From Bacteroidales bacterium (GTDB lineage: Bacteria; Bacteroidota; Bacteroidia; Bacteroidales; VadinHA17): 64,000 nt of DNA. The notes beneath the pieces were generated by a model. That model ran no database searches. It saw nothing but the letters and a program-made list of their open reading frames with translations, and was not told the DNA's origin. How positions within the stretch are numbered: position 1 is the first letter of the stretch; each line of letters starts with the position of its first letter. Positions 1,754 to 64,000 of this stretch are shown piece by piece. The position numbers and the translations under genes are program-made. The DNA lies in assembly GCA_046329875.1 (NCBI GenBank), contig JAXLTT010000018.1, forward strand, positions 933 to 64,932, given 5' to 3'.

Positions 1754-1777
1754 ATCCGTTTAACTAAACGGTAAGAG

Positions 1778-2716: not shown

Positions 2717-2721
2717 CAATT

Positions 2722-11603: not shown

Positions 11604-13127
<1,524 letters not shown>

Positions 13128-13133
13128 TTGAGA

Positions 13134-13388: not shown

Positions 13389-13389
13389 A

Positions 13390-14802
13390 ATGAAACCGGA
13401 TGAATTCAGGAAACATGCCCATGCCCTCGTCGACTGGATGGCGGATTACATGGAGCATGTTGAATCCTATCCTGTAAAATCCCAGGTTGCCCCCGGTGAT
13501 ATCTTCAGTAAACTGCCGGACAACCCGCCCCTTGAAGCTGAATCATTCGAAGCTTTTTTTGAGGATTTTGAGAAGATAATAATGCCGGGGATCACCCACT
13601 GGCAAAGCCCTAACTTCTTCGCTTATTTCCCTGCAAACACAAGCCCGCCTTCGGTACTTGCAGAGATGCTCACATCAACGCTCGCAGCACAATGCATGAT
13701 ATGGGAGACCTCACCGGCCGCAGCCGAACTCGAGGAAAAAGTGATGAACTGGCTGCGCGATGCTACCGGTCTGCCAGCAGCATTTGAAGGGGTGATACAG
13801 GATACCGCCTCAACTGCAACCCTTAGCGCCCTGCTCACGGCAAGAGAAAAAACAACTGGTTTCAGGATAAACGAGGAAGGAGCTTTTAAAAGCAGGATCC
13901 TGCGGGTTTATTGCTCTGAACAGACCCATTCATCAGTTGAAAAGGCTGTAAAAATTGCCGGTCTCGGGAGGAAGAATCTTGTTAAGATCCCTGTTCTTGA
14001 AGACTATTCTATGGACACCAGAGCATTAGAAAAAGCTGTTGAAGACGACCTTTCAAACGGATACCTCCCCTGCTTTGCAGTCGCATCACTCGGAACCACC
14101 GGCACAACATCCATTGATCCGCTGAGCACCATTGGAGAGATCTGCAAAAAGCATAATATATGGCTTCATGTTGATGCCGCCCTCGGCGGAACAGCACTCC
14201 TCCTTCCTGAATTAAGGTGGATGATAAAAGGGATTAAAAATGCCGACAGCCTTGTCTTCAACCCCCACAAGTGGATGTTTACAAACTTTGACTGTACTGC
14301 ATATTTTGTAAAGGATGCAGCAACACTCATACGCACATTTGAAATCCTTCCGGAATACCTTAAAACAAGATCAAGGGGAAAGGTGAATGATTACCGCGAC
14401 TGGGGCATACCGCTTGGGAGACGCTTCAGGGCGCTGAAACTATGGTGTGTCATAAGGATGTACGGGCTGAACGGCCTCAGGGAAAAGATAAGACTGCACC
14501 TTTCACTTGCAAGGTGGCTTGAGACAAGGATAAGGGAAGATAAAGACTTCGAGCTGATGGCCCCTGTAACCCTAAATACAGTTTGTTTCAGGTATCATCC
14601 CGCCGGCTGCAGCAATGATGATGCAAACACCCTTAATGAGAAGCTGAATCATATCCTTAATGATTCCGGGAATATCTACCTGACCCATACAAAACTCAGG
14701 GGCTGCTATACGCTAAGAATGGTAACTGCCCAGACAAATGTGGAACTGAGGCACGTTGAAAAAGCATGGGAACAAATTAAGGACACAGCCGCGGAATTAT
14801 AA
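13390..14802 (+). CDS. group II PLP-dependent (aromatic-L-amino-acid/tyrosine-type) decarboxylase
   Basis: NPHKW PLP-lysine motif, 470 aa. The start lies 1 nt after the atpC stop. Confidence 0.85.
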   Translation: MKPDEFRKHAHALVDWMADYMEHVESYPVKSQVAPGDIFSKLPDNPPLEAESFEAFFEDFEKIIMPGITHWQSPNFFAYFPANTSPPSVLAEMLTSTLAAQCMIWETSPAAAELEEKVMNWLRDATGLPAAFEGVIQDTASTATLSALLTAREKTTGFRINEEGAFKSRILRVYCSEQTHSSVEKAVKIAGLGRKNLVKIPVLEDYSMDTRALEKAVEDDLSNGYLPCFAVASLGTTGTTSIDPLSTIGEICKKHNIWLHVDAALGGTALLLPELRWMIKGIKNADSLVFNPHKWMFTNFDCTAYFVKDAATLIRTFEILPEYLKTRSRGKVNDYRDWGIPLGRRFRALKLWCVIRMYGLNGLREKIRLHLSLARWLETRIREDKDFELMAPVTLNTVCFRYHPAGCSNDDANTLNEKLNHILNDSGNIYLTHTKLRGCYTLRMVTAQTNVELRHVEKAWEQIKDTAAEL

Positions 14803-49961: not shown

Positions 49962-50441
49962 ATGGACCTGAGGAATCTCTCAACAGCCCTGTTTGTAAAA
50001 GACATAGAGGCTTCCAAAAGCTTTTACTCCGGTATCCTCGGATTGAAGATAACCCTCGATTTTGGCAAAAACGTGATCTACTCCGGGGGGCTCACCACCT
50101 GGGAGATCCGGGAGAAGCATATTATCCCTTCAAAGCTTGGGAGGGAGAATATCTCTGATACAGGGACCAACCGTTTCGAGATCTACTTCGAAACTGAAAA
50201 TCTTGATGAGGATTTTGAGAACCTTAAGAAGAATGGGGTTAAGTTTTTACACGGGCTTCACGAAGAGCCATGGGGGCAGAGGACAATAAGGTTCTTCGAC
50301 CCTGATAATCATCTTATAGAGATTGGTGAATCGATGAAAATATTTGTCGGAAGGTTCTATAACGAAGGGTTGTCAGTTGATGAAATAGAAAAGCGCACCT
50401 CCGTACCACGCAATGAAATCATAAGATTACTGGAGCTATAA
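49962..50441 (+). CDS. VOC (glyoxalase/bleomycin-resistance fold) family protein
   Basis: 159 aa; FYSGILGLK... and PWGQRTIRFFDPDNHLIEIGE are typical of the VOC fold. Confidence 0.7.
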   Translation: MDLRNLSTALFVKDIEASKSFYSGILGLKITLDFGKNVIYSGGLTTWEIREKHIIPSKLGRENISDTGTNRFEIYFETENLDEDFENLKKNGVKFLHGLHEEPWGQRTIRFFDPDNHLIEIGESMKIFVGRFYNEGLSVDEIEKRTSVPRNEIIRLLEL

Positions 50442-50465
50442 AATAAAAAGAGCGAGTTCCTCGCA

Positions 50466-50503
<38 letters not shown>

Positions 50504-50514: not shown

Positions 50515-50565
50515 CCCTGTCCGCCCCCTGGCGAAAGCTTATTGATTATACCGGCCGTGTCAGGG
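50515..50565 (-). repeat. attC-like site a (terminal, degenerate, about 51 bp)
   Basis: CCCTGTC...CCGGCCGTGTCAGGG with internal CGCCccctGGCG hairpin. Confidence 0.5.
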
Positions 50566-50585
50566 GCATTAAGATTTTTTATTAG

Positions 50586-50780
50586 TTAAGAATCCAATTC
50601 CTTAATCAATGCTTTGATCTCCTCGTATGATTCTTTTACTTTCTGTGGAAGGGAGTAGTTTACAAGATTTGATTTAAGACTTGAACCGTTTTTGGATGGT
50701 TCAATCCATGCAATGTGCATTACATTAAAAAAGATTTTTTCACCATCAGTATTTGTCAGTTCAATGAAGAGGTTTTTCAT
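50586..50780 (-). CDS. cassette ORFan, 64 aa
   Basis: MKNLFIELTNTDGEKIFFNV...; ATG at 50780 preferred. Only a vague resemblance to small FlbD-like proteins. Confidence 0.45.
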   Translation of the reverse strand: MKNLFIELTNTDGEKIFFNVMHIAWIEPSKNGSSLKSNLVNYSLPQKVKESYEEIKALIKELDS

Positions 50781-50831
50781 ATGTTGTCTGTTTTTCAGGT
50801 TACAGGAACTTATTTTTCGCAGCACTTATTG

Positions 50832-50942
50832 CCCCTCACAGCACTACGGGTGCGAGTGGCAAACAAGAGGGCCGATCCGCAAGTAGAAGGACAGGTACAC
50901 CCATGGCTGAAGCTTTTTAAACATACCAACCGTGTCAGCCGG
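50832..50942 (-). repeat. attC-like site b (about 111 bp)
   Basis: Left CCCCTCAC, right ACCAACCGTGTCAGCCGG. Confidence 0.6.
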
Positions 50943-50966
50943 AGAATTTAAACAGGTTCAGATTTA

Positions 50967-51347
50967 TCATTTTGCCCTGATATAAAGGCTTGTATATCCA
51001 TCGTTTGGTACGATGGTCAGGGAGTCGCCACTTTGGTATATTCCAACATAGGCATATTTTACACCTGGAAATAAAGAATCAAAATCTAACTCCAGGAAAT
51101 TCTCATTTTGTGCGATAATCCTGATCTTCCCTTTTTTGTCGCTGTTATATTGAAATAACCCATATTTTATAAACTTAATTGTATGATAATTGCTAGTGTC
51201 AAATCCAGTATGAGTTACCGTGTAAACATAATTCCAGGTTCCATAAATGTTTTGATACTGCTCTGTAAAGATCTCGTCCTTGTAGCCTTTTTCACAACCA
51301 CTTATGAAAATTGCCAGTAAAAAACCAATTATTATTCTTGCTTTCAT
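50967..51347 (-). CDS. cassette lipoprotein ORFan, 126 aa
   Basis: MKARIIIGFLLAIFISGC lipobox. Confidence 0.6.
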   Translation of the reverse strand: MKARIIIGFLLAIFISGCEKGYKDEIFTEQYQNIYGTWNYVYTVTHTGFDTSNYHTIKFIKYGLFQYNSDKKGKIRIIAQNENFLELDFDSLFPGVKYAYVGIYQSGDSLTIVPNDGYTSLYIRAK

Positions 51348-51442
51348 ATGATTGAACTGACAGTTATACAAGTTACAGAGATTTTGGCTATTTCTAAAAA
51401 AAATCAATTGACCAGATTGCTATTGTTTCGTGAGGAATACTA

Positions 51443-51636
51443 CGACTAACGACGCGGCGAGTGTGCGCCAGGGCACAAGGCGAAAGTTTAAAGAGGGCCG
51501 AGCGTAAAGAAATTGCCTTAATGGCAATTTTAGCGAGGAGCCAGCTTGCAGGGATGTAGTATGTGATCCGTCCACTGGCGGAACCAGTTCGCACGCTGGC
51601 GGAAACAACTTACCCATATTGTCCGTGTTAGCCATA
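51443..51636 (-). repeat. attC-like site c (about 194 bp)
   Basis: Left CGACTAACGACGCGGC, right TATTGTCCGTGTTAGCCATA. Confidence 0.7.
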
Positions 51637-51657
51637 GGTTGGATTCGATATCCTTTT

Positions 51658-52554
51658 TTAATAAAGAGATCCCTTTTCTTGTTTCTTAATCTCCCTGGAA
51701 GTCATCTCTTTTTGCATAATGCTTTTCAAATATACTACCTTTGTTTTTCTAATCTCGCTTGCAGGCAAAAGGCTTCCATCCTGGCCTGAGTATTTAATTT
51801 GTAGGCTTTCCGCTCTCCCATTTTCTTTAGGTGCAACAACGTATAGTGTCAATGTTTCAGCAGCACTAATTATACCAATTGGTTCACCGGGATAAACTAC
51901 CTGTCCAAGTTTAAGAAATGTGACTTCAGGATTTAATCCCAGATAGATCGCAATAGTTCCGTCATTTTGCAAAATTTCAAGACTTGAAGACTTAATAAAT
52001 CTTTCAACTTCTGTTTTATTGTCTTGTAGTGCAATCACTGTCCCTTTCCGTATAGCGTATACGGTATCATTTATGGACATTTTGAATTTGTTGAGATTAT
52101 AAACGGTAGCCTCTCCTAGTTTTTCTTCCTTAAAACTTACAATTTTCCCTTCACCTATTGGGATGAAATAAGGAAATTCTAAATCGGCCTTATCCGCGGG
52201 CAATAGTTTAAAACTGATACCGTAACTGTAATTAATTGATTTAGATTTGTCTTGTACATCAAAGACACAAATACGATTTCTACCATGATAGACCTTTGTA
52301 TGATACTCAAAGATGTTGGGAGAGAGATTAAGAAGAGCACTAAAATGAATTGTGAAATCATACGTTAGGTAAGATTTATTTATAGCATCAAAAGTGACTC
52401 TAGAACTTGATTTCTCTACATCCATAGAGATGGGGGAATTAATTCTACCTCCCAGGGTCATTTCTTCAACTTTTGAATATTGCCCAATAAGCAATTGGTG
52501 AGAAATTATTAGAATTAGTAAAGTAGAAGCCGTTGGTAAATGTATTTTTTTCAT
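51658..52554 (-). CDS. cassette secreted protein with degenerate LytM/M23-like C-terminal domain
   Basis: Signal peptide MKKIHLPTASTLLILI. The GTVIAL...LEILQNDGTIAIYLGL...LKLGQVVYPGEPIGII pattern resembles M23 but lacks the His ligands. Confidence 0.5.
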   Translation of the reverse strand: MKKIHLPTASTLLILIISHQLLIGQYSKVEEMTLGGRINSPISMDVEKSSSRVTFDAINKSYLTYDFTIHFSALLNLSPNIFEYHTKVYHGRNRICVFDVQDKSKSINYSYGISFKLLPADKADLEFPYFIPIGEGKIVSFKEEKLGEATVYNLNKFKMSINDTVYAIRKGTVIALQDNKTEVERFIKSSSLEILQNDGTIAIYLGLNPEVTFLKLGQVVYPGEPIGIISAAETLTLYVVAPKENGRAESLQIKYSGQDGSLLPASEIRKTKVVYLKSIMQKEMTSREIKKQEKGSLY

Positions 52555-52578
52555 GTTTGTCATTATTTCGATTAAACT

Positions 52579-52755
52579 TATGGCTAGCGGCCTGGCGGGG
52601 TGCGTTTCACGCACAAGGAAAAAGTTAAAAGAGGGCCGCGCGTAAAGAAATTGCCTTAATGGCAATTTTAGCGAGGAGCCAGCTTGCAGGGGTTGTAGTA
52701 TGTGATCCGCCCACTGGCGGAGCCTACTAAACATACCGACCGTGTTACAGGCATT
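52579..52755 (-). repeat. attC-like site d (about 177 bp)
   Basis: Left TATGGCTAGCGGCCTGGC, right ACATACCGACCGTGTTACAGGC. Confidence 0.7.
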
Positions 52756-52769
52756 TATGTTAAACTTAA

Positions 52770-53384
52770 TTATGAAAGAGATTTTAATATTAAAGAGATG
52801 GTCAAAATTAAAAACATAATAGCTGCAACAAACCTATTAATCCTAATAGCCTCCTGAATTCGTAATTTACTTTGAGCTGAGAGTTCATCAATTAGTCTTA
52901 GCTTTTGATCGTTCAATCCTCTTCTTTCAAACTTAGTTAGAAGCTCTGTTTTTTTGTCTTCAAGGTTTTTGAATTTTTGAAATAGTTTTTTGTAGATATA
53001 GTTATCGAGTAACATTATAAAGACTACAATTGCAATACTCGCAATCCAAAAAATTGGCGGAAGGTCATTGAAATTGATGTTTTGAAGTTTCAATAACACA
53101 ACTATAAAGGTTATTAAGAGGGAAATAACTATTAAAGAAGTTTTCAAATTGAAATAGGGCCTTTTAGAGAGTTCAATACAGAGATTATCTAATTCCTCTT
53201 CAATATTTTCTAGTTTAAATGAATCCTTTAATGATTCAACATCAGTTAAGTTAAAGTGACGGTTCTCTAGTTCTAATCTGGCAAATGGAATAACTTCATC
53301 AGGGAGAAAAGAATTTCCAGAATAGATATCGTAAAGTTCCTTTGAGGTTTTTTCTTTTAATATTTCTGTCCAATTGTATTGCAT
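52770..53384 (-). CDS. cassette membrane ORFan, 204 aa (3 TM helices)
   Basis: Hydrophobic helices at about aa 83-105, 118-138 and 182-202. Confidence 0.6.
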   Translation of the reverse strand: MQYNWTEILKEKTSKELYDIYSGNSFLPDEVIPFARLELENRHFNLTDVESLKDSFKLENIEEELDNLCIELSKRPYFNLKTSLIVISLLITFIVVLLKLQNINFNDLPPIFWIASIAIVVFIMLLDNYIYKKLFQKFKNLEDKKTELLTKFERRGLNDQKLRLIDELSAQSKLRIQEAIRINRFVAAIMFLILTISLILKSLS

Positions 53385-53405
53385 TCGATTAGAAATTTCT
53401 GATTA

Positions 53406-53537
53406 ATTGCCTATAACGGCCCGGCTGGGTGTGTGTAGGGCAAAAGGCGAAAGTTTAAAGGCGAAAGTAAAGAAAACTTTATCCCCCAGTCCGCCTGCTG
53501 GCGGAGATTATTAATTATACCGTCCGTGTTAGGTAAT
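53406..53537 (-). repeat. attC-like site e (about 132 bp)
   Basis: Left ATTGCCTATAACGGCCCGGC, right ATACCGTCCGTGTTAGGTAAT. Confidence 0.75.
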
Positions 53538-53545
53538 GTGATTTG

Positions 53546-53917
53546 TTAATTTATCCTCATGGACTTATTTTTAAAGTCCTCTCTTGTACAATCTATAATT
53601 GCTCCGCTAAAAGTCTTTCTGTAGATATGGAATGAGTTTTTAATTTTAAATACTGAATCTCCAATCTCTATTCCGTTTTTCAGATCACTATAATAAACGC
53701 TTAAGTCTAGCCTTTCTCCATTACTAAATGTTATAATAGTACTTCCATGATTATCTGAATGTATTCTTTTCTCTATTACTTTACCTGAAAAGGATGACTT
53801 GTAGAATTCTAAGTTCGCTTTATGGTTGATATAAAAAGCATACCCAAAGAAACATACTACACTATTAATTATTAATGCAATACAACCATATTTGCGGTAT
53901 TTATAAGGTAATCCCAT
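53546..53917 (-). CDS. cassette ORFan with N-terminal TM anchor, 123 aa
   Basis: One TM helix (GCIALIINSVVCFFGYAFYI). Confidence 0.55.
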   Translation of the reverse strand: MGLPYKYRKYGCIALIINSVVCFFGYAFYINHKANLEFYKSSFSGKVIEKRIHSDNHGSTIITFSNGERLDLSVYYSDLKNGIEIGDSVFKIKNSFHIYRKTFSGAIIDCTREDFKNKSMRIN

Positions 53918-53954
53918 TTGTAATTTATCTCAGAACCTAAAGATTCTTTCGCAT

Positions 53955-54094
53955 ATTACCTAACGGTTGACGACACAGGGACGTGCGTGGATTTAGGGGC
54001 GAAAACCTATCAGATTACAATGTGTTTGTTTACGAGCTGCAACCGCCCAAAACCCGCCCTGTAACCCGCATGCCCGGGGTTGTTTGTTGCAGGG
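53955..54094 (-). repeat. attC-like site f (about 140 bp)
   Basis: Left ATTACCTAACGGTTG, right CCCGGGGTTGTTTGTTGCAGGG. Confidence 0.7.
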
Positions 54095-54200
54095 GGTAAT
54101 TTATTCTGCATCAATATTGAACTCAATATCAACAATTTCATAGATTACTTAATAGTCCGGTTAGCAACTCAAATGATATAATTTCCTGTTTTCATATAAT

Positions 54201-54234
54201 AAGAAGAGACGACTATAAGAGGTCGTCACTTCTT
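54201..54234 (-). terminator. hairpin downstream of cassette ORF 54254-55003
   Basis: AAGAAGAGACGAC-tataagag-GTCGTCACTTCTT; only a modest T-run follows on the sense strand. Confidence 0.4.
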
Positions 54235-54253
54235 ATAATTGAATAAACTCTTA

Positions 54254-55003
54254 TTATTTTTTATTATAATCTTCTACCATCCTGGTGAAAGCCTCTAAAG
54301 TATCCATGTGGAAGCTGGATTCAAAGACAGGTCCTTTTACAAAAAGATTTCTAAAACCATATTTGTTTTTAGCGTAATCGGTTAAAACGGTTTTATTATC
54401 GCCGAAAAGATTCTTTAAATTTATGGTAGACAAATTTTTCGCCTCCTCTCCTGCTTTTTGGGCAAGAATCTCAAAGTTATTTTCCTGCCATTTGACATAA
54501 TCAGCATCACTAACCTTCGTCCGGTCAGGTAAGTAGGAAGTAACGATACCCTGGGTATGGTGGTATTTTTTTAAAACGGTTATCTTTCCTTCCGTGGCAA
54601 CTTCCAGCATCATCTTTCTAGGTATCTGGTCTTGTTTTCTTTTCGCAAAAAGATTGACATATGTCTCCTGTTTGAATTTTTTACCATTTTCAAGTGTAAA
54701 ACTTTGCAGGTCGTCGGCATCATAAACCACAACCGAGCCTTTGTCTATTTCTTTCCCTGCTTTGTAGGCTTCATACGCTTTCTCGTCAATCAGGTAAACC
54801 TTTTTTTGAAAATCCTGGGGGTTCATCATATCAAAATATATGTATCCATTAACAGTATCCCCGTTTTTCATCGTTACCGTACCTTTTTCATATGTCCAAA
54901 CCGAACTGGGAGTTCTTAACTGAGCTTTAGCATGGTTACATGTCAGGCTAAAAAGCATTACCAGCATGAGTGTAATCGTTGAAATTCTGTTTGTTGCTTT
55001 CAT
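54254..55003 (-). CDS. cassette secreted ORFan, 249 aa
   Basis: Signal peptide ..LTCNHAKAQ. Confidence 0.6.
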   Translation of the reverse strand: MKATNRISTITLMLVMLFSLTCNHAKAQLRTPSSVWTYEKGTVTMKNGDTVNGYIYFDMMNPQDFQKKVYLIDEKAYEAYKAGKEIDKGSVVVYDADDLQSFTLENGKKFKQETYVNLFAKRKQDQIPRKMMLEVATEGKITVLKKYHHTQGIVTSYLPDRTKVSDADYVKWQENNFEILAQKAGEEAKNLSTINLKNLFGDNKTVLTDYAKNKYGFRNLFVKGPVFESSFHMDTLEAFTRMVEDYNKK

Positions 55004-55226
55004 AATTTTGATTTTATTAAAATTAGGGTTACTCTCTTAAAAAAATCTTTGCACCGAAGATTTGTAATTGTAGTTTGCAATAAATTTGGGTTGCTTTGCA
55101 TCTTTCAAGGTTTATTAGTAATATACAAAAAAGCATCTGATTTTCGTAATCAATCCTTATCTTTTTTATCCTTGAATGATTCTTTGTGAAAAAACAATTA
55201 TTGTACTTTCACTCTGTGGTTTTATG

Positions 55227-55418
55227 CCCTGCAACGGCCAGGCGGGGGTGCGCGGAGCGCACAAGGCGAAAGTTTAAAGGAGAAAGGCGAAAGTCAAAAG
55301 TAAAAAGTAAGAAAAGCAATTGGGCTGATAAATCACTTGCAGTTTCTGTCAAGGTGGCCTTTAGGTCCCCGGCAAAAAGTGTGACAAACAAATGAACTTT
55401 ATTGTCCATGTTAGCATT
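55227..55418 (-). repeat. attC-like site g (about 192 bp)
   Basis: Left CCCTGCAACGGCCAGGC, right TTATTGTCCATGTTAGCATT. Confidence 0.7.
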
Positions 55419-55426
55419 CGTTTATT

Positions 55427-56338
55427 TTAATGTAATGGTTCGATGGAATCTATAATTACTTTCCCAATGTTACCATTCACAAAATAATTTATTTGAATTT
55501 TTATTTTGTTTTGTTCTAATCTTGGATCATAATTTATCCAATCTAGTGGCATTTTGTAAATAATATCCTGCATTGTCTTGGCGAACGGAATACTACCATT
55601 GTAACTTATTCTCTGAATGTTTATTGAATCGTGGAAAGTTGTTAACTCAAATATTGCATTTGAATTCTGAACAAAAAATGGTTGGCTTTTAACTCTCTTT
55701 TCAAAAACTGATTTATAAAAGAGGGACTTAAACCTTTCTAAGCTTCCAAGTTGATCATAACTTTTTAAACCATTGTTATATATCATATTGTTATTTGTGA
55801 AATCATATTTACAGGCTATGGAGCCATTTTTAAAATAGTAATTCCATATACCTACTTTTTTGTTGTCAATATATTCTCCAACTGCTGCAGTCCGAATTCC
55901 ATTTGTGTCAAGAGAAATCTTAATTGGGTCATTTCCTTTCGGCAGGGTTGCTGTTGTATGTTTTTTACCTCCGAAAAGATTTACAATATTATCATTTTCT
56001 GAATCTGGAATGTAAAAATATACCCATTTACCAGTCTTCTTGTCATTTTTAAACTCTCCTATTGAAAGCAAAGGATTTGCGACATTCTCTGGATCACAGA
56101 ATATCCATCCTCCAGTTTTCTTATTATTATCATAGTTTCCGTAAGCTTCAATGGATTTATCGTACATATTCATAGATTCAAAATACTTCAGGTACTGCCC
56201 CTGTCTAACATTCTTATCACTCTTTAGTACATAATAAACCTCTCCAAATTGGTCATTCGACCTGATGATTTTTTTCAGTTCTTGAGCTTTCAAACTAGTC
56301 GAAATAATTAAGAAACAAAGTAGGATTTTGATTTTCAT
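55427..56338 (-). CDS. cassette MORN-repeat-variant (YwqK-like) secreted protein
   Basis: Signal peptide; repeated KKTGGW / KKTGKWVYFY / KKVGIWNYYFKNG units. Confidence 0.7.
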   Translation of the reverse strand: MKIKILLCFLIISTSLKAQELKKIIRSNDQFGEVYYVLKSDKNVRQGQYLKYFESMNMYDKSIEAYGNYDNNKKTGGWIFCDPENVANPLLSIGEFKNDKKTGKWVYFYIPDSENDNIVNLFGGKKHTTATLPKGNDPIKISLDTNGIRTAAVGEYIDNKKVGIWNYYFKNGSIACKYDFTNNNMIYNNGLKSYDQLGSLERFKSLFYKSVFEKRVKSQPFFVQNSNAIFELTTFHDSINIQRISYNGSIPFAKTMQDIIYKMPLDWINYDPRLEQNKIKIQINYFVNGNIGKVIIDSIEPLH

Positions 56339-56374
56339 ATTTTAAAAAGATTATGGCTTATACTAATATCTATT

Positions 56375-56794
56375 AATGCTAAAGGTCCGGCGAGGGCTGA
56401 GCGTTAATAAACAGCCCTGGCGGGCTGTTTTAGCGAAGAGCCGGTCTGCAGGGGCGGAGTAAGCGTAACCCGACGAAGCATCCGTGCACAATCCTGATAC
56501 CCCACGGTAGCGGGGCCACAAAACTGTCCCGGTGCGAGGAGGGTTTGGCATGTGTTTTTGCAGTCATGTTGTGAAGTGTCTTGCCTCTACGTGTATCGCG
56601 GTACAATGAGTCTTGGAGTTAGAAATTTGTCCTGGTGTAGATACTTAATTGAAATTACTTGAGGGGCGCCCTATGTCGGAGCGAAGCGGAGATTGGGGCG
56701 CGGGGCTCTGTCACGGTGTAGTATTAGTCATAGCAGCAGGAGCAAAAGCAAAAACCATGACAAGCTTATTAAACATACCGACCGTGTTAGCGGG
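56375..56794 (-). repeat. attC-like site h (about 420 bp, carries the module shared with site j)
   Basis: Left AATGCTAAAGGTCCGGCGAGGGCTGAGCG, right AACATACCGACCGTGTTAGCGGG. Confidence 0.65.
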
Positions 56795-56816
56795 TGACCC
56801 TGTTTAAGTTATAAGT

Positions 56817-57839
56817 TTAATGTTCGTTTTCAGTATTTGAGTCAGGATACTCATCATCAAATATGAATTTTACATTCTTAAATCTAACTATCAATTCTTT
56901 CTGCTCAGTAAGTTTTAACTTGTTATTGCCCATGATTATCTTGAGATTTCTAATTGAATCTAATGAATCTGGTAGTCTAATACCCACATTAGCTGTTAAA
57001 TTCAATTCTTGAAGATTTCTCAACTTAGAGAATGATTCAGGAATGTCCTTAATGTAATTTACTTCCAGATTTAGGATTTTAAGATTTTCTAGCGCTGAAA
57101 TCTCATCTGGGAGACTATGCAAGTTATTGGTGTTTAATTCGAGTTCCTCTAGTTTTGAAAGGTTGGAGATATAAGGTGGAATTTCGTTAATACGATTATA
57201 GGAGAGTTTCAGTTTCTTTAGTGAGGTCAAGGAAAAGATTTCTTTTTGTATCTCAGTCAGAGCATTTCTACCCAAGTCTAGGTATTCGAGATTTAGCAGA
57301 TTAGTAATTTCTGAGGGTAATTGCTTTGCTAAAGTTGTATCGGATTTACCTCTAGTATCCAATCCGCCAAACAATACCAGCATCGTCAGATTCTTTAATT
57401 TACCAATTGAGGAGGGAAGAAATATGTTCATTGTGCAACTGTTGCTATTATCGACAATCAGTTTCTCTAAATATCTGAGGGAGCCAATTTCAGGTGGAAG
57501 ATCTATTAGGTTTTCAAGACAGTGAATCTCAAGGATTGTCAAGTTCCTGAGTGTGCTAATTTCTGAGGGCAAATGTTTCAGGTTATAATACTTTGAAGTT
57601 TCAGTGCTAGGATTCCACTTTGGTGTAATAATAAGATGATAGATTCTGTCTGACAATAATAATGCTGAGTCTAGATCAGTGATTGTTAAAGTATCATCCC
57701 CAATCTCTCTGTTAATTGAGGGCTCAATTGCAGGAATAGAATCTATATTTATTACTCCTGACTTTGTTGATGGGGCCCTTGGTGTTTGACTACATCCGAT
57801 TATTACAACTAATGCAAAGGAATAAACGGCTGATTTCAT
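56817..57839 (-). CDS. cassette leucine-rich-repeat lipoprotein
   Basis: Lipobox VIIGCSQ; at least 9 LxxLxLxxNxL repeats (LKKLKLSYNRINEIP, LEELELNTNNLHSLP...). Confidence 0.85.
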   Translation of the reverse strand: MKSAVYSFALVVIIGCSQTPRAPSTKSGVINIDSIPAIEPSINREIGDDTLTITDLDSALLLSDRIYHLIITPKWNPSTETSKYYNLKHLPSEISTLRNLTILEIHCLENLIDLPPEIGSLRYLEKLIVDNSNSCTMNIFLPSSIGKLKNLTMLVLFGGLDTRGKSDTTLAKQLPSEITNLLNLEYLDLGRNALTEIQKEIFSLTSLKKLKLSYNRINEIPPYISNLSKLEELELNTNNLHSLPDEISALENLKILNLEVNYIKDIPESFSKLRNLQELNLTANVGIRLPDSLDSIRNLKIIMGNNKLKLTEQKELIVRFKNVKFIFDDEYPDSNTENEH

Positions 57840-57859
57840 AGTAGTTAGTTATGATTAAC

Positions 57860-58201
57860 CGCTAACGGCCCGGCGAGGGCTGAGCGTAAATAAATTGCCT
57901 GAATGGCAATTTTAGCGAGGAGCCAGCTTGCAGGGGTGGCAATATAAGGTAAAAGTTAAAAGTAAAAAGTCAAAAGTAAAAAGGCAAAAGTAAAAAGTAA
58001 GAAAAGCATTCGGGCTGCTAAACCACTTGGGGTATTTGCTCGGCTGGCGTTTACGTCACCGGGGAAAAACCATGACAACTGCGTAAGCCGAAGCTTTCTT
58101 GACCACCAAAGCTTTCTTGTCCACCGAAGCTTTAGCGGAGGTGGAAGCGTAGTCGGGGGCGAAGGCTTAGCTTATTAAACATACCGACCGTGTTATAGGC
58201 T
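57860..58201 (-). repeat. attC-like site i (about 342 bp)
   Basis: Left CCGCTAACGGCCCGGCGAGGGCTGAGCG, right AACATACCGACCGTGTTATAGGC. Contains an AAAAGT-rich tract. Confidence 0.7.
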
Positions 58202-58223
58202 GCTCTTTTATTTCATACCATTT

Positions 58224-59072
58224 TTACCAAAGTTTCCGTTTGCTCTTTATTGTCAATTCTTTAATCGTTTTCTTGGTCGTTGAACGTGGTTTTGTTTCTT
58301 CTGATTTTAACTGCTGGTCAACAATTTGTATTATCCAAATATCAAAGTCAGCAACGAAGCCATACATTGTATTTTTTATATCGAAATCAATTTGAACGTC
58401 AATTGTGTCAATCTTTTCAATTAAATGCGCTGTCAGTTTATGTCTGATTGGAAGATACCATTGAACCACTGGTTTATTGTCCCAACTTGCATAATTCAAA
58501 ACAAGAATTTCTGCATTTTCAAAGTCCGTTTTGTTCGGTTTGTTTGATTGGTTTATTCGAGTTGTTGCGATTAAATTATGTCCATATTCGTCATTTTTAA
58601 TTGCTTCTAAAACAACAGCTCCGCCGTAATTTCCGTTTTCAAGTTTAAAAGCCAAACAATCACCTTTTTCAAAAACTGGTTGTCTAATTAGTTTCTTTTT
58701 CCTTGATTTTACTTTAGGTATTTCTTTTTGTAAGTCAGCAAGAAAATTGTCAAGAGCTGTTTTACGTTTTTGGATGGTCTTTTCGTCAGCGTCAAGTTGT
58801 CTCCAGACTTCAAGGTCTGCGCCTGTTTCAATAACTTTTTTAACTCGGTCTAAAATATCTTTGTCCAATTGTTTACATTCCCATTGTGCTTTTGCCAAAG
58901 CAAACCAAAAGTTATTACAGTCTTCCGTATCATTAATTGTTTCTTGATTGTCTGCGATTAACTTTTTTGAAATTTCTCCAACATCAAGTCCACCATTATA
59001 CAAGTCAAAAAATATCCTGTAAGTATCAGAGTAAGTGTCGTTAGATGATATTGCTGTTCCCCAAGTTCCCAT
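58224..59072 (-). CDS. cassette DUF4259 domain protein
   Basis: MGTWGTAISSNDTYSDTY... start is characteristic of DUF4259. Confidence 0.65.
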   Translation of the reverse strand: MGTWGTAISSNDTYSDTYRIFFDLYNGGLDVGEISKKLIADNQETINDTEDCNNFWFALAKAQWECKQLDKDILDRVKKVIETGADLEVWRQLDADEKTIQKRKTALDNFLADLQKEIPKVKSRKKKLIRQPVFEKGDCLAFKLENGNYGGAVVLEAIKNDEYGHNLIATTRINQSNKPNKTDFENAEILVLNYASWDNKPVVQWYLPIRHKLTAHLIEKIDTIDVQIDFDIKNTMYGFVADFDIWIIQIVDQQLKSEETKPRSTTKKTIKELTIKSKRKLW

Positions 59073-59103
59073 ATATTTTGTATTGTCCTGTTTTTTTAGA
59101 GTT

Positions 59104-59660
59104 GCCCATAACGGCCCGGCGAGGGCTGAGCGTTAATAAACAGCCCTGGCGGGCTGTTTTAGCGAAGAGCCGGTCTGCAGGGGCGTAGTAAGCGTAACCC
59201 GACGCAAGCACCGGGCAGATCCTGGTTCTTCAGGCAGAAATTGTCCCTGTGCAAGCTTGCCTGCCGTCAGGCAGGGAGGGTTTGGCGTGCGTTTTTGCAG
59301 TCATGTTGTGAAGTGTCTTGCCTCTACGTGTATCGCGGTACAATGTTTTTTCGGAGCAGTGAACTTATCCCCATTTACAAAACTTGTTTCAGGCACTGGC
59401 GCAGTGTCGCGATGGAATGAATATTGGAGCCAGCAATTAGTCAAGGAGTAGGATCTTTATAGTGTGTAGCTGCGGGAGTCCGGGTGCAGTATTAATAAGG
59501 GAACATTAAAGCCAACCGTTATTTTGGAAAAGAAAAAAGGCTAAAAGAAAAAAGAAGGTTCGGGCTGCTAAACCGCGTGTGGTTTTTGTACGGCTGGCGT
59601 TTACGTCACCGGGCAAAAACCGTGACAAACAACTTACCTATATTGTCCGTGTTAGCAACA
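59104..59660 (-). repeat. attC-like site j (about 557 bp)
   Basis: Left GCCCATAACGGCCCGGCGAGGGCTGAGCG, right CTATATTGTCCGTGTTAGCAACA. Confidence 0.65.
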
Positions 59661-59680
59661 GGGCATTTTATTAGATTCTA

Positions 59681-60805
59681 TTATTGAAACAAATGAATGT
59701 AATTATCAAAAATGTAAATTCGCCCTCTCTGTCCACCCGTAATCTCCTTAAGAATTCCAAGTTTTTCAAGATCAACAATTAATTTATAGGCTGACGGTAA
59801 TGATATTTTTGCAATTTCACCAACCTTTTCAGCATTAACTGATGGTCTTTGATAAAGATAGTTTGTAACCTTTTGAGCATTAGCAGCCCTACTGCCAAGA
59901 TGCTGAATTTTAAGGTCAATTTGTTTTTGTAATTGCAGAATACTATCAAAAGTGGAAATTCCTTTTTTAGAAGTCTCTATGATTCCAACTAGGAAGAATT
60001 TGAACCATTGACTGATGTCATTTTTAATACGTACATTCATTAAATTCTCGTAATAGAGACGTCTGTGTGTTTCCAAGAAATCTGATAAATATAATATGGG
60101 TTTTTTAAGGATCCCTTTATTAACTAAGTATAAAGTGATCATTAGTCTTCCTACTCTCCCGTTACCGTCTAAAAATGGGTGAATAGTTTCAAAATGATAA
60201 TGAATTAGAGCTATTTTAAGAAGCTCTGGAAAGAAAATTTCCTCATTATGAACAAATTTTTCTAGATCCCCCATTAGTTCAGGTACAGACGTATGAACTG
60301 GTGGAATAAATGTTGCATCATTTATTGTTGCTCCCCCAATCCAGTTCTGACTTCTCCGAAATTCTCCAGGCTGTCTCTTTTCTCCTCTTACTCCTTGCAA
60401 TAGAATCTTGTGTGTATCCCTAATTAATCTTGATGAAAAAGGAAGTTCCTCTAAAGCTTTAATTGCAGATTCCATCGCTTGAATATAGTTCTGAACTTCT
60501 TCCCAATCATCCCTTTTGTCTAATGGAACATCTTCTTTCTCAAGAAGAGCCTCCTCAATATTGGTTTGTGTTCCTTCAATTTTACTACTTTGAGTTGCTT
60601 CTTTTAAAACATGCATACTTATAAACAAATCAATATTTGGGATATAGTTGGAATACATATCCAATCTACCAAGTTCTCGGTCTGCTTTGCTTAATAGTTG
60701 TAAAACCTCCATGTTGTCAATAGTCCATTGCCTATTAATGAGAGATGGTTGAAAGCTCTTATATGAGCCTTGATTTATATAAGATCCAGCATTGAAACTT
60801 TGCAT
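59681..60805 (-). CDS. cassette Fic family protein (AMPylase-type)
   Basis: HPFLDGNGRVGR Fic motif, Fic N-terminal region, C-terminal wHTH-like tail. ATG at 60805 was preferred because TTG at 60826 lies inside the -7 box. Confidence 0.88.
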   Translation of the reverse strand: MQSFNAGSYINQGSYKSFQPSLINRQWTIDNMEVLQLLSKADRELGRLDMYSNYIPNIDLFISMHVLKEATQSSKIEGTQTNIEEALLEKEDVPLDKRDDWEEVQNYIQAMESAIKALEELPFSSRLIRDTHKILLQGVRGEKRQPGEFRRSQNWIGGATINDATFIPPVHTSVPELMGDLEKFVHNEEIFFPELLKIALIHYHFETIHPFLDGNGRVGRLMITLYLVNKGILKKPILYLSDFLETHRRLYYENLMNVRIKNDISQWFKFFLVGIIETSKKGISTFDSILQLQKQIDLKIQHLGSRAANAQKVTNYLYQRPSVNAEKVGEIAKISLPSAYKLIVDLEKLGILKEITGGQRGRIYIFDNYIHLFQ

Positions 60806-60823
60806 GAGCCTGTATATTTTAAA

Positions 60824-60831
60824 CAAATATA
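60824..60831 (-). promoter_or_regulatory. candidate -7 box TATATTTG internal to the Fic cassette
   Basis: TAnnTTTG on the sense strand, about 19 nt upstream of ATG 60805. Confidence 0.4.
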
Positions 60832-60944
60832 TTCCTTATTTAAGAAAAAGCAAAATATATTAAATAAACAACGCGACTATTTAAGCTATTTAAATATTTC
60901 ATAAATAATTATTTGTCTATTTAAGGTAGAATCTAGAATCTCCT

Positions 60945-61280
60945 TGTTGCTAACGGCCCGGCAATATGGGGAGGTTGTGTTGGTTTGAGAATGGAAGCTG
61001 TGACCAGAAAGCTTTCTTTGAGGCAGGGTCCTGGCACACAGCTGGAATGAACAAACCATGGCGCACTTTTTGCGAGTCCGGGTACAAATTGGCTGAGTAA
61101 ACGCGTGCCGAGTTTCAAGGTTGAAAATTGACCACATGCTGTCGGTCATGCAGGTAATAGATCAAAGAAATAAGGAGCGTTCGGGCTGATAAATCACTTG
61201 CAGTTTTTGTTAAGGTGGCCTTTAGGTCCCCGGCAAAAAGTGTGACAAACAACTTACCCATATTGTCCGTGTTAGCAGAA
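60945..61280 (-). repeat. attC-like site k (about 336 bp)
   Basis: Left TGTTGCTAACGGCCCGGCAATATGGG, right CCCATATTGTCCGTGTTAGCAGAA. The right core abuts the stop codon at 61282. Confidence 0.75.
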
Positions 61281-61281
61281 G

Positions 61282-62148
61282 TTATTTTTTCAATTCATAT
61301 AATCCCTTTTTATCATTCCATACTAAATTATTTTGGTTTTCATTCCAGAAATTCAACCACCAATCAGCATTTTTAGTTCCATTAAATTTCAGATCCCCGA
61401 ATAATATTTGCAAGTATGCATAGGTATATGTGTCTGGATTACAGAAATTTGCTGGGGAATCCTTGTCTTTTGGCATTTCTTCTAGGTTATATACTTTCTT
61501 TAAACAGTTTTTTGTAATTCGTTCTTTAATAGGATTGTCTTGCAGAGAAATAATTAAAGCATGGATTGCACTTAAACTAGTGATTTCTGGAATTTTAGAA
61601 TTTTTAAATTCGATTGGTTGAAATTCTTCGACTGATTTGTTTGACAAATAGTCCACCCATTTGTTCTTTAGTACTTCAAGCTCCAATTCATTTGATTGAA
61701 TGGTGACATAACCAAAATTTTTGTTTGTTAAGTTCTGAAGAATTTGATTTGCTCTACCTCCAACTTTGAATAAATCGTTGTCAATTACCAAACCTTTTCC
61801 CTCAAATATTATATCACCACTTACTATTCTATCCCATATAATTAATCTACTAGTCCCCTCTAGCTTTGTCTCTTTTAGGTTAATTATCTGATTTGTAAGT
61901 TCTTTTAAATAGGTACTATCTTTTGAATAGTTATTTATTGAAGCATTCATGGTTAAAAAAACTGCACTCCAACTTTTGTCATTCAAGTTTTTGGATAAAA
62001 GTTCTGAGGGTGTAAGTTTTTGGGCTGCGTCATACATTTCTTTCGTGTAATTCTCTATATTTTGTTGACTCCAAGAAGTCAATAAACGTTGAGAATATGA
62101 ACAAAAGCAAATAGATGTAGTTAAAATAAAAAAGATTAATTTTTTCAT
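61282..62148 (-). CDS. cassette secreted ORFan, 288 aa
   Basis: MKKLIFFILTTSICFCSYSQ signal peptide. The 62277 extension runs through attC l. Confidence 0.6.
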   Translation of the reverse strand: MKKLIFFILTTSICFCSYSQRLLTSWSQQNIENYTKEMYDAAQKLTPSELLSKNLNDKSWSAVFLTMNASINNYSKDSTYLKELTNQIINLKETKLEGTSRLIIWDRIVSGDIIFEGKGLVIDNDLFKVGGRANQILQNLTNKNFGYVTIQSNELELEVLKNKWVDYLSNKSVEEFQPIEFKNSKIPEITSLSAIHALIISLQDNPIKERITKNCLKKVYNLEEMPKDKDSPANFCNPDTYTYAYLQILFGDLKFNGTKNADWWLNFWNENQNNLVWNDKKGLYELKK

Positions 62149-62163
62149 AGACTTAAATTTAAT

Positions 62164-62488
62164 TTCTGCTAACGGCCCGACAATAAAGTAAGTAAGTGTT
62201 GGCTGACGAAGGCATCCGGCAACGCGTCCAGGTGCTTTAGCCGGGAATCTATCCCGGTGACAAGGAAGCCACGGCACGCTTTTTGCAAATCCAGGCGCAA
62301 CTAAATTGAACAGGTTGAGTGTCGCGATACAAACTTTATAAGTGATTAGTTATTTCTCACGATACAGAAAACTGATAAGTGGGCGATGGCGCGGTCCGGG
62401 TTTATCACCAGTTACGAATCCTGATAGACGACTGAGAGTCACGCAAAAAGCGTGACGAGCTTATTTACTTTATTGTCCGTGTTGTGGG
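62164..62488 (-). repeat. attC-like site l (about 325 bp)
   Basis: Left TTCTGCTAACGGCCCGACAATAAAGTAAGTAAG, right CTTATTTACTTTATTGTCCGTGTTGTGGG. Confidence 0.75.
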
Positions 62489-62498
62489 TAGTGCTTTT

Positions 62499-63572
62499 TT
62501 ATAATTCCATATTCATTGCTTTTCTTACTTCTGTTAAAGTTTCAATAGCAACTTCTCTGGCTTGTTTAATACCGTTTCTTAAAATCTCTTTAACAAATGT
62601 TTTATCTTCTTCAAGTTGTTTCCTTCTTATCCTAATTTCCTTGAAATGGGAATTCAAGGCTTCAGAAGTGATTTGTTTTAATTTTCCAGCACCTTGATTT
62701 CCAATTTCTTTCGCAATATTTTCAGGAGATTGATTCAGGCAAAGGCTACAAAGTCTTAATAAATTAGCAACTTCTGGTCTATTAATTGGGTCATATTCGA
62801 TTAATCGTTCAGAATCTGTTTTTGCGGATTTAATTAATTTATTAGTCTCATCTTCGGTAGCCTTTATCATAATGCTATTATTTCGACTTTTGCTCATTTT
62901 CTGAGTGCCATCCAATCCTAAAATCACAGGGACTTCACTAAGTAATCCAATAGGTTCTCTAAAAACATTTGATTTGAATTTTTTATTAAATCGTTTTGCA
63001 ATTGTCCTTGTCATTTCTATATGAGGTAATTGGTCTTTACCAACAGGAACCACATTACTTTTACAAAACAATATATCAGCGGCTTGATGAACAGGATAAG
63101 TGTACATTCCTGCATTAATAATGTTTTGACATGACGCTGCTATTTCTTCTTTTATGGTTGGGTTTCTGCTAAGTTCTGCATTAGAAACCAAAGATAAAAA
63201 CGGAATCGTTAATTGATTCAGTTCAGGAATGTGACTATGAGGAAAAATAAATGTTTTGTTTTTTGAAGGGTCTAACCCACATGCTAAATAATCAATCGTA
63301 AGTTCAACCACATACTTTGAAATATCTGCAAAAACATCTCTATCAGTTAATACTTGATAATCCGCAATCAAGATATACGTTTCAACGCCAAGTTCTTGCA
63401 ACCGAACTCGATTCTGTAAAGAACCAAAATAATGTCCAATATGTAAATTCCCTGTTGGTCTATCTCCTGTAAGTACTCTGTGTTTATGTGGGTTTATTTT
63501 TAAATCTTTTTCTAACTCATCGCTTCTTTTAATTGAAATTTCATACGATGAATAATTAACGTCATCCTTCAT
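62499..63572 (-). CDS. trpS: cassette-borne tryptophan--tRNA ligase
   Basis: HIGH motif (TGNLHIGHY) and KMSKS motif; GDRPTG-type N-terminus; 357 aa. Confidence 0.88.
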   Translation of the reverse strand: MKDDVNYSSYEISIKRSDELEKDLKINPHKHRVLTGDRPTGNLHIGHYFGSLQNRVRLQELGVETYILIADYQVLTDRDVFADISKYVVELTIDYLACGLDPSKNKTFIFPHSHIPELNQLTIPFLSLVSNAELSRNPTIKEEIAASCQNIINAGMYTYPVHQAADILFCKSNVVPVGKDQLPHIEMTRTIAKRFNKKFKSNVFREPIGLLSEVPVILGLDGTQKMSKSRNNSIMIKATEDETNKLIKSAKTDSERLIEYDPINRPEVANLLRLCSLCLNQSPENIAKEIGNQGAGKLKQITSEALNSHFKEIRIRRKQLEEDKTFVKEILRNGIKQAREVAIETLTEVRKAMNMEL

Positions 63573-63593
63573 TATATCTGTTTTAATTTTTCA

Positions 63594-63601
63594 CAAAAGT
63601 A
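63594..63601 (-). promoter_or_regulatory. candidate -7 box TACTTTTG inside the trpS cassette
   Basis: TAnnTTTG on the sense strand, 22 nt upstream of ATG 63572. Confidence 0.4.
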
Positions 63602-63700
63602 AAATTTTAATTTGCACGAGCAGCAGATTCTTGCATTCTGTATAACGGCAAAATCGTTATCTTGATAATTTAACGGAAATCTCTCAGTAACAGAGGATTA

Positions 63701-64000
63701 CCCACAACGGCTCGGCAATAAAGTAAGTAAGTGTTGGCTGACGCAGGCATCCGGCAACGCGTCCAGGTACCCGCCGGTAGGCGGGCCGGGAAACTATTCT
63801 GTATAACGGCAAAATCGTTATCTTGATAATTTAACGGAAATCTCTCAGTAACAGAGGATTACCCACAACGGCCCCGCGGTATGTGCAGTTGACGGCAGCA
63901 TCGGGGTGGCGTGTTTTTTGCCAGGGCGTATAGAAAGTAGAAATGTTTATCGTTTTGAAAATCTTAATTGTTTTGCAAAAAACATGACACCATTTGGGCT
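63701..64000 (-). repeat. attC-like site(s) m (left half duplicated; right end beyond window)
   Basis: CCCACAACGGC occurs at 63701 and 63862. The segment 63635-63711 is repeated at 63796-63872. Confidence 0.6.

Follow-up and report, generated by a model that had tools for sequence, protein, structure and literature searches.

In this paper we looked at a stretch of 64,000 nucleotides (the window) from contig JAXLTT010000018.1 of a Bacteroidales bacterium and found that its last 13.5 kb holds a genuine array of some 12 mobile gene cassettes, set between folding recombination sites. Each cassette is built of one open reading frame (ORF), at times several in relatives, followed by a long imperfect palindrome, and gain, loss and replacement concern entire cassettes, with ends that lie between AAC and GG (equivalently between CC and GTT) of the 5'-proximal arm. 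We consider it rather probable that we have here the distal part of an integron-like cassette array on the chromosome of a Bacteroidales-type genome, with a catalyst that is likely to be Xer/IntI-like and not a canonical IntI. The array points to a poorly characterised gene-capture system of the Bacteroidota, most likely an integron-like platform of the rAID (recombinase-associated acquired interbacterial defence) type with unusually long folded sites.

Cassettes and their boundaries

From 50.5 to 64 kb of the window the ORF listing places every sizeable ORF on the minus strand, and the GC content is 0.34-0.40 compared with 0.43-0.48 across most of the other window sequence. The 12 minus-strand, AT-rich ORFs that an earlier reading of the letters alone (the sequence-only reading) had described from 50.5 kb onwards are therefore borne out. 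Two half-site types bound each unit, ..CCGTGTTA.. 3' of the gene and ..YTAACGGCCCGGC.. 5' of the gene. Read on the plus strand, the half-site just 3' of each gene (A type) is ..ATACCGACCGTGTTAGC or ..ATATTGTCCGTGTTAGC and the one 5' of each gene (B type) is ..YTAACGGCCCGGC.., so that in gene sense a unit runs from ..GGCC through GTT (parted between G and TT) with its flank, the ORF, and the partner flank' with AAC, to ACGG.. The cassettes are as follows.

50525..64000, minus strand: entire cassette array, about 12 co-oriented units, cut at the window edge
62481..63708, minus strand: cassette 1 (GTTGTGGG...CCCACAAC); ORF 62499-63572, class I Trp/Tyr-tRNA synthetase-like
61271..62173, minus strand: cassette 2 (GTTAGCAGAA...TTCTGCTAAC); ORF within 61282-62277, no assigned function
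59651..60954, minus strand: cassette 3; ORF 59681-60826, Fic / SoFic defence family
58192..59112, minus strand: cassette 4; ORF 58224-59072, no assigned function
56786..57866, minus strand: cassette 5; ORF 56817-57839, leucine-rich repeat (LRR) protein
55410..56383, minus strand: cassette 6; ORF 55427-56338 (303 aa), no assigned function
54086..55235, minus strand: cassette 7 (GTTGCAGGG...CCCTGCAAC); ORF 54254-55003
53528..53964, minus strand: cassette 8 (GTTAGGTAAT...ATTACCTAAC); ORF 53546-53917
52744..53417, minus strand: cassette 9; ORF 52770-53384
51627..52590, minus strand: cassette 10 (GTTAGCCATAG...CTTATGGCTAGC), AAC mutated to AGC; the ORF, within 51658-52734, weakly matches M23 peptidase
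50559..51450, minus strand: two distal decayed units, GTC replaces GTT; ORFs 50586-50825 and 50967-51407

A pattern search for the A type (..CCGTGT(T/C)..) gave 10 copies, at 50559, 50934, 51627, 52744, 53528, 56786, 58192, 59651, 61271 and 62481, and a profile search added an 11th at 55410. The B type (..AACGGCCCGGC..) has 8 canonical copies, at 53415, 55233, 57864, 59110, 60952, 62171, 63706 and 63867, and further copies with a mutated core at 51448, 52588 (AGC) and 56381 (AAG). By profile search, neither type occurs in the remaining 50 kb of the window. The claim that every intergenic gap carries both half-sites holds for most of the gaps, but the distal units and 53962-54088 have divergent or decayed sites. 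The two extra bases (GT, plus strand) that had been seen on one arm sit on the GTT arm beside the box, which in integron terms is the R''-L'' arm of the bottom strand. At its distal end the array adjoins a glyoxalase gene (49962-50441), and a (CTCTCA)n microsatellite (about 50455-50495) lies between the terminator hairpin of this gene and the last, truncated element of the array.

Relatives of the array were collected as numbered L-loci, and the 148 fetched loci together with the window make 149 sequences. A 19-nt word from the A site found two uncultured Bacteroidales metagenome-assembled genomes (MAGs; L003 and L005), together with one small contig that is mis-binned and one Ignavibacteria site, and a 21-nt degenerate A-site pattern found at least 120 JGI and ENA metagenome contigs. 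The two MAG loci come from contigs of 916 kb and 1.9 Mb, of which stretches of up to 8 kb were read. Profile searches with the window sites gave 274 A-type (GTT) and 237 B-type (AAC) half-sites across the loci, confined to one strand in every locus and alternating B then A in most of them.

The pairing of the cassette ends follows the logic of integron cassettes. In 157 cassettes from the window and 126 related loci, the 10 bases after GTT match the reverse complement of the 10 bases before the cassette's own AAC at 7.9/10, compared with 3.8/10 for flanks across an element (n=180) and 3.7/10 for random pairs of A and B sites. A match of at least 8/10 is reached by 75% of the own-cassette pairs, 1.7% of the across-element pairs and 1.2% of the random pairs. 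The six complementarities from which the sequence-only reading had argued are all present in the window, one of them shifted by one base (its AAC is 57864-57866); its proposal that each unit starts with a TT.. half which pairs with the unit's own distal AAC box is upheld, above chance level, by these 157 pairs and by their position-specific profile.

In this profile, positions 1-6 match in at least 87% of the pairs and positions 9-10 in 78%, and matching is random beyond them, while position 8 matches in just 3%, i.e., there is a fixed mismatch eight bases outside GTT/AAC. On the cassette 5' side this position is A (gene sense) in 157/157 and the partner gives G.T (plus strand) in 115 and C.T in 32; examples in the window are 59651/60952, 61271/62171 and 62481/63706. 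The same signature, GTT followed by 7 paired bases and an A/G mismatch at position 8, bounds the cassettes of three arrays that stand beside intact recombinases (L131, L132 and L149). Based on this profile, a circularised cassette would have a stem in which AAC/GTT and 7 bp are followed by a fixed mismatch and then by 2-3 further pairs; such a stem is longer than the 7-bp R box of integrons.

Folded elements and cassette mobility

Each cassette is followed by an element that runs from AAC to GTT on the plus strand, which is the folding (bottom) strand. The elements of the window are listed here.

62171..62483, plus strand: attC-like element, 313 nt, AAC..GTT on the folding strand; terminal stem about 25 bp
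60952..61273, plus strand: attC-like element, 322 nt, with a long terminal stem and an inner stem GCGCACTTTTTGC / GGCAAAAAGTGTGAC
59110..59653, plus strand: attC-like element, 544 nt, with an internal insertion; arms of two different subtypes
57864..58194, plus strand: attC-like element, 331 nt; arms of two different subtypes
56381..56788, plus strand: attC-like element, 408 nt, AAC mutated to AAG; partly 92-97% identical to 59110-59345
55233..55412, plus strand: attC-like element, 180 nt
53962..54088, plus strand: divergent short attC-like element, 127 nt (AACGGTTGACG...GGGGTTGTTTGTT)
53415..53530, plus strand: short attC-like element, 116 nt; folds, z = -2.6
52588..52746, plus strand: attC-like element, about 159 nt, with a mutated AAC box
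51448..51629, plus strand: attC-like element, about 182 nt, with a variant arm (AACGACGCGGCG)
63706..64000, plus strand: truncated copy of an element (63706-63795), then a cassette leader of 82 nt that is duplicated, then the beginning of the next element (63867-), the last one cut by the window edge

In the relatives the elements have a median length of 383 nt (97/183 lie at 380-399 nt) and a typical spacing of about 350 nt between the sites; a second mode lies at 300-339 nt, a few elements have only 82-130 nt, and those of the window span 116-544 nt. The median segment that separates two elements has 830 nt. Most window sites are longer than the default attC size range of IntegronFinder, so this tool would probably not call them. 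Searches of Rfam gave no family matching the 383-nt elements, and a plasmid collection gave no DNA match to them. Viral contigs gave two matches, of which only L128 (IMGVR_UViG_3300014502_000008, 54 kb, classed viral) holds a complete element, a lone copy of the window type at 12338-12733.

The imperfect inverted repeats that had been noticed between the units are stems kept by compensatory changes. Among 96 distinct 383-nt copies, whose mean identity is 71%, the two arms occur in co-varying subtypes (GGCAATATGGGGAGGTTGT with ACAACTTACCCATATTGTCC, GGCGGTATAATT.. with ..AATTATACCGTCC and GGCGGTAGGGTT.. with ..GACCCTACCGTCC) and the inner stem co-varies likewise (GGCGCACTTTTTGC with GCAAAAAGTGTGAC, and CAC/GTG, TGG/CCA, CAG/CTG and TGC/GCA). 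In the alignment of these copies (A1), 97.7% of the cells are paired and 265 cells are changed on both sides, compared with 59.6 in shuffles (0/500 reach 265) and at most 59 when the 3' partners are slid. The mean folding energy with DNA parameters is -62.2 kcal/mol for the plus strand, opposite to the ORFs, and -51.9 kcal/mol for the gene strand, the plus strand being lower in 96/96; the covarying helices hold 253 G.T pairs versus 27 A.C pairs, and the long elements of the window have the same strand bias. The covariation and the strand asymmetry suggest that the folded bottom strand may be the recombinogenic one, as in single-strand recombination.

The element interior (about 115-340 of the A1 consensus, e.g., L075 38-429) holds about 8 direct copies of GTCNCGGTRCAA, one every 33-38 nt, with no conserved pairing, and shows signs of an internal duplication of about 177 nt. 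In short elements (53415-53530 of the window and one in L022) the terminal and inner stems are kept and the interior repeats are missing. Long internal blocks are common to non-adjacent elements (56538-56608 = 59275-59345, at 92-97% identity), and in the elements 57864-58194 and 59110-59653 the arms are of different subtypes and do not pair. These shared blocks and mismatched arms suggest that homologous exchange may take place between element interiors. Close to the window edge an 82-nt direct repeat (63635-63716 / 63796-63877, 98% identical) duplicates the 5' leader of the Trp/Tyr-tRNA synthetase (TrpRS) cassette including its AAC boundary, and a truncated element copy lies between the two repeats.

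That the cassettes move is seen by comparing closely related arrays. The 303-aa protein of the window (55427-56338) is found as an identical protein, with varying neighbours, on 22 other contigs, and in BLAST comparisons the array matches these contigs at 98.6-99.8% identity in blocks that end at B sites. In L134, L135 and L136 the TrpRS cassette is followed directly by the Fic cassette, and the window has 1219 bp extra (60955-62173), exactly one ORF and one element, between two AAC boxes (resolution about 13 nt). The junction of the relatives, CTCCTTGTTGCTAAC followed by GGCCCGGCAATAAAG (also read as CTCCTTGTTGCTAAC followed by GGCCCGGCAATAAAGTAAG), is a fusion of the 60952 site's left flank with the interior of the 62171 site. 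In relatives the LRR cassette is swapped for a SIR2_2 cassette together with a 193- or 217-aa cassette, and the 303-aa cassette is followed by 249-aa, 205-aa or insertion sequence (IS) IS3 sequences, depending on the contig. The presence/absence and order polymorphism by which the sequence-only reading wished to be judged is thus found as whole-cassette indel, replacement and re-association. The array was also expected to continue past 64000, and L134, which extends 2.4 kb beyond the equivalent of the window end, holds three more cassettes there and no recombinase; its most proximal protein, used as a query, gave no lead further upstream.

An IS1182/IS5-like IS with a 502-aa transposase (DUF772 and DDE_Tnp_1_6; L094 11292-12924) and its derivatives of 130-170 nt, which are miniature inverted-repeat transposable elements (MITEs) with the ends GGGAGTCTGTCTAATAAC, have inserted precisely where AAC meets GG in the B arm at ten independent loci (L094, L044, L045, L076, L086, L093, L103, L105, L106 and L120). 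This insertion point is the putative crossover point. The motif AACGGGAGTCTGTCTAAKAAC, which was considered as a conserved attI at contig ends, was rejected: it is the terminal repeat of this IS and its MITEs, located at the same point.

The cargo is diverse. The Fic cassette of the window matches SoFic in PADLOC (395 bits). Its ORF 62499-63572 is an extra class I Trp/Tyr-tRNA synthetase carried as cassette cargo, which could be an antibiotic-insensitive spare copy; the exact protein was found on two short contigs only. The 139 distinct cassette proteins of the relatives match 115 Pfam families, none of them by more than 5 proteins, and include Mrr nucleases, ParE, beta-lactamase, esterases and Fic. 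Defence genes of the SIR2, TIR and BrxC/D types are also found in relatives. Some multi-gene cassettes carry defence-type genes (TerB_C with BrxC/D in L020; TIR-TPR and NYN in L005), and L118 holds a multi-gene cassette unit of 9 kb.

The recombinase and rival explanations

One of the main questions is which enzyme moves the cassettes. The window holds a cluster of attC-like sites without an integrase; it stops inside the array, so the array head lies outside. [quoted passage not shown] This expectation found no support: an IntI-type gene is present neither in the window nor in the 148 fetched loci, and the source contig has only 68,125 bp in all. In the window and the 120 metagenome loci no Xer/IntI-type gene was found either.

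For the window's own site type we saw three array starts (L003, L022 and L123). The first has a recombinase fragment (1-513) in the orientation of the cassettes, which an inserted cassette (GTTAGGTGGC...GCCACCTAAT) interrupts after ..LHSLRH. In the second, a recombinase C-terminus (550-663; ..LGHDSSKTTEIYKHV..IKSPFDTLDF) lies upstream of the first cassette boundary, at a distance of 105 nt. The two remnants are members of a single family (P0125) of 266-300 aa Bacteroidota recombinases that end in ..ELLGHKSSKTTEIYTHV..IKSPFDDL. Intact members of this family, followed by co-oriented runs of small unrelated genes, are found in L131 (GCA_008933615.1), L132 and L149, the last being the Chryseobacterium sp. 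SNU WT5 plasmid NZ_CP041688.1. The arrays of these three loci have attC-like hairpins of about 125-190 nt, and one well-folded L131 element that was tested folds better on the bottom strand. At all five array starts (L003, L022, L131, L132 and L149) the adjoining recombinase is co-oriented with the cassettes and has no IntI-specific insertion.

The family scores 221.7 on the XerA-type NCBIfam model NF040815 (cut-off 220), the next best being the integron-integrase model; on integron-integrase TIGR02249 it reaches 206.5, under the cut-off of 265. Its alignment with IntI4 (2a3v) gives two blocks with about 48 residues skipped between them, which are the IntI-specific insertion. An integron integrase is therefore not what the array starts show, and in length the sites far exceed canonical attC. 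What defines integrons is IntI with its special domain, by which the flipped-out bases of folded attC are read. Membership of the array in the integron family is not supported, since this defining feature is absent wherever a recombinase could be seen.

Several other observations concern these recombinases and their arrays. None of the three copies nearest to the window's site family (L133 1957-2493, L022 550 and L003 513) is undamaged; the damage falls in or close to the C-terminal catalytic motifs (after LRH, before LLGH and after FIQ). Downstream of the recombinases in L022, L130, L131 and L132, and likewise at the first-cassette junctions of L022, L123 and L149, we recognised no attI motif in common. 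Another recombinase gene of L003 (2701-3660) was rejected as the array integrase. It shares a unit with an IS91 transposase and cuts short a YdeI cassette gene; its homologues number more than 5,900, most of them on contigs of 2-3 kb, the family being an IS component of high copy number, and it is present in L129 without an array. This IS91-family unit (L003 about 1300-3700) has a 304-aa tyrosine recombinase, likewise resembling IntI without the insertion, that overlaps a Y2 transposase, and it cuts a YdeI/OmdA cassette gene; it also lies at 6001-8066 of L129, a 4.86-Mb genome, with no array nearby. In L149 an IS110-family transposase gene (13059-14060) and a group II intron reverse transcriptase gene (15525-16841) stand in the opposite orientation at the starts of two sites, each right after a cassette AAC/AAT end, and a short unit GTTGGGAAAAATCGCCCTTTGGGACGATTTTTCCCAAC is present three times together with its site. 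IS1111-attC elements and group IIC-attC introns insert in a like pattern in integrons.

Several points weigh against the reading of an integron-like array with an Xer/IntI-like catalyst. No intact recombinase stands beside any array of the window's own site type, where we see only two remnants, and L123 has no recombinase within 5 kb of its array start; the arrays with intact enzymes (L131, L132 and L149) do not have the arm sequences of the window. The link to the Xer/IntI-like family thus rests on two of three starts and on related arrays with differing arms. The insertion of IntI reportedly contacts extrahelical bases in the solved IntI4-attC complex, a contact that an insertion-less enzyme would lack in reading a hairpin. 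Recombination of the folded bottom strand is itself an inference from covariation and strand bias. The junction of the relatives has GGCCCGG and not GGCCCGA, which misfits a crossover exactly between AA and C unless it is a strain single-nucleotide polymorphism. Finally, in several elements of the window the two arms differ in subtype or the AAC box is mutated, so part of the window array may be inactive.

One possible option, which we consider improbable, is a classical integron or CALIN remnant, in which an IntI with the insertion is encoded elsewhere and acts on the sites, the Xer/IntI-like genes being unrelated neighbours or decayed relatives. The R boxes do fit the integron consensus (RYYYAAC / GTTRRRY), the extra bases are on the R''-L'' arm (where those of integrons reportedly also lie), the bottom strand folds, short versions of 116-130 nt exist and the array head of the window's own contig lies outside the sequence seen. 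Integrons were also reported in Bacteroidota (PMC8618304). Yet the lack of IntI in the loci and the insertion-less, co-oriented recombinases at five array starts argue against it, as does a 2024 survey in which Bacteroidota is treated as a clade where IntegronFinder found no integrons (10.1101/2024.07.02.601686).

Somewhat less probable still is that no dedicated enzyme exists and that the housekeeping Xer recombinases of the host move the cassettes on folded or duplex sites, as with CTX-phage attP or the pdif modules of Acinetobacter. The array-associated recombinases are Xer-like by sequence, the L123 start has none nearby, and the copies in L003, L022 and L133 are all damaged, the arrays nonetheless being polymorphic; however, the sites do not have the 11-6-11 layout of dif, and a dedicated co-oriented recombinase lies directly upstream in L131, L132 and L149.

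It is very unlikely, in our opinion, that the folded elements act as RNA, i.e., as structured transcripts, antisense or leader, by which expression of the cassettes is regulated or terminated, with the cassette pattern as a by-product. Strong covariation and a G.U-type asymmetry on one strand would fit RNA as well, and the interior carries phased repeats of unassigned role, but the favoured strand is antisense to every gene, Rfam gives no match, and an RNA function leaves the pairing of own-cassette flanks and the whole-cassette indels between AAC and GG unexplained. Selfish repeats of the MITE or REP (repetitive extragenic palindrome) kind, inserted between ordinary, non-mobile genes, can practically be set aside: terminal inverted repeats, about 71% identity among elements and abundance in metagenomes would suit them, but every copy points the same way, in strict alternation with genes, pairing of the outer flanks spans the gene and not the repeat, indels take out gene and element together, and the region is low in GC with heterogeneous cargo.

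Relation to known systems and proposed mechanism

Compared with sedentary chromosomal integrons (IntI/attI/attC, such as the Vibrio cholerae superintegron with its repeats, VCR), the architecture and behaviour of the array agree on each tested point except for the integrase, the site length and the gene orientation. Both have co-oriented, mostly single-gene, low-GC cassettes with an imperfect palindrome with AAC/GTT boxes after each; the first bases of a cassette pair with its own distal box, giving chimeric sites, and the sites are homogeneous within a lineage, as VCRs are. The features of attC are present, namely the R''/R' boxes, stems with covariation and extra bases next to AAC on the R'' arm, with better folding of the bottom strand. 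The 1219-bp one-cassette indel, the replacement and the re-association show, at a resolution of about 13 nt, that cassettes excise and insert as units between G and TT of R'. The cargo is diverse and includes toxin-antitoxin and defence genes, and an IS and a group II intron are found at sites, comparable to IS1111-attC and group IIC-attC introns. The differences are that no IntI was found and the array-adjacent recombinases lack the insertion; that the recombinase is co-oriented with the cassettes, whereas intI is usually divergent; that the sites typically have 383 nt versus 57-141 nt in attC, only a minority having 82-130 nt; that about 8 phased direct repeats lie inside the sites; and that the paired R box is extended as described above.

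A closer likeness is found in the rAID-1 arrays of gut Bacteroidales, which were described as 'reminiscent of integrons' (Ross et al. 2019, 10.1101/471110). One mark by which they are recognised is a XerD-like recombinase at the 5' end that shares at least 44% identity with BF9343_RS08045 of B. fragilis (10.1101/471110), and a 2025 paper defines rAID by the same features with no mechanism given (PMC12247911). The two systems share the order Bacteroidales and at least 2 co-oriented downstream genes with GC of at most 41%, here about 12 ORFs with 0.34-0.40. Conserved intergenic motifs are present in the window and its relatives, and rAID-1 is described as having repetitive ones; the likely catalyst of our array, just upstream in the same orientation, would match the architecture reported for rAID-1. 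They differ in cargo, which in rAID-1 is mainly orphan immunity genes of the type VI secretion system and here is heterogeneous (TrpRS-like, SoFic, LRR and unassigned in the window; 115 Pfam families in relatives, none dominant). The point of the sequence-only reading that a long array in this lineage deserves attention has to be qualified, as rAID-1 has been known from Bacteroidales since 2019 (10.1101/471110). Neither 10.1101/471110 nor PMC12247911 contains an analysis of site folding, strand or crossover, and in the literature we found no paper on the site structure, strand bias or crossover point of such arrays. Also close to the P0125 family are NF040815 ('site-specific tyrosine recombinase/integron integrase') and the 'Integron-like' subgroup of simple tyrosine recombinases, whose integron-specific insertion was described as 'not fully conserved' (Smyshlyaev et al. 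2021, PMC8138268); for insertion-less members, cassette arrays and site structures are reported in neither source.

The mechanism that we propose is that a tyrosine recombinase would bind the hairpin formed by the single-stranded bottom strand, with its R-box stem (AAC/GTT and 7 bp), the fixed mismatch, a bulged spacer in which two bases are extra, and a long L stem. It would exchange one strand beside GTT, and replication would resolve the product, as in the attC x attC and attI x attC reactions of integrons. The catalyst would be a 'simple' Xer/IntI-like recombinase of 266-300 aa, whose gene stands directly upstream of the first cassette and points the same way; for the window's own array this gene would lie outside the available sequence. 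We give about even chances to the wider proposal that Bacteroidota have a capture platform of their own, which exchanges the folded bottom strand at the GTT box by a short, co-oriented Xer/IntI-like recombinase that never had, or has lost, the IntI-specific domain, with rAID-1 as a specialised branch and the 383-nt sites grown in one environmental Bacteroidales lineage.

The 383-nt sites with their phased repeats raise the question of how such long hairpins extrude and are recognised. If our proposal is true, hairpin-based gene capture would not be unique to IntI, and systems of this kind would have been missed by surveys that are based on IntI and attC models. There would be a large unsampled pool of cassettes, as at least 120 metagenome contigs came from a single 21-nt pattern, with defence, toxin-antitoxin, beta-lactamase and many unknown genes. 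The rAID arrays, which shape interbacterial defence in gut Bacteroidales, would also gain a mechanistic footing.

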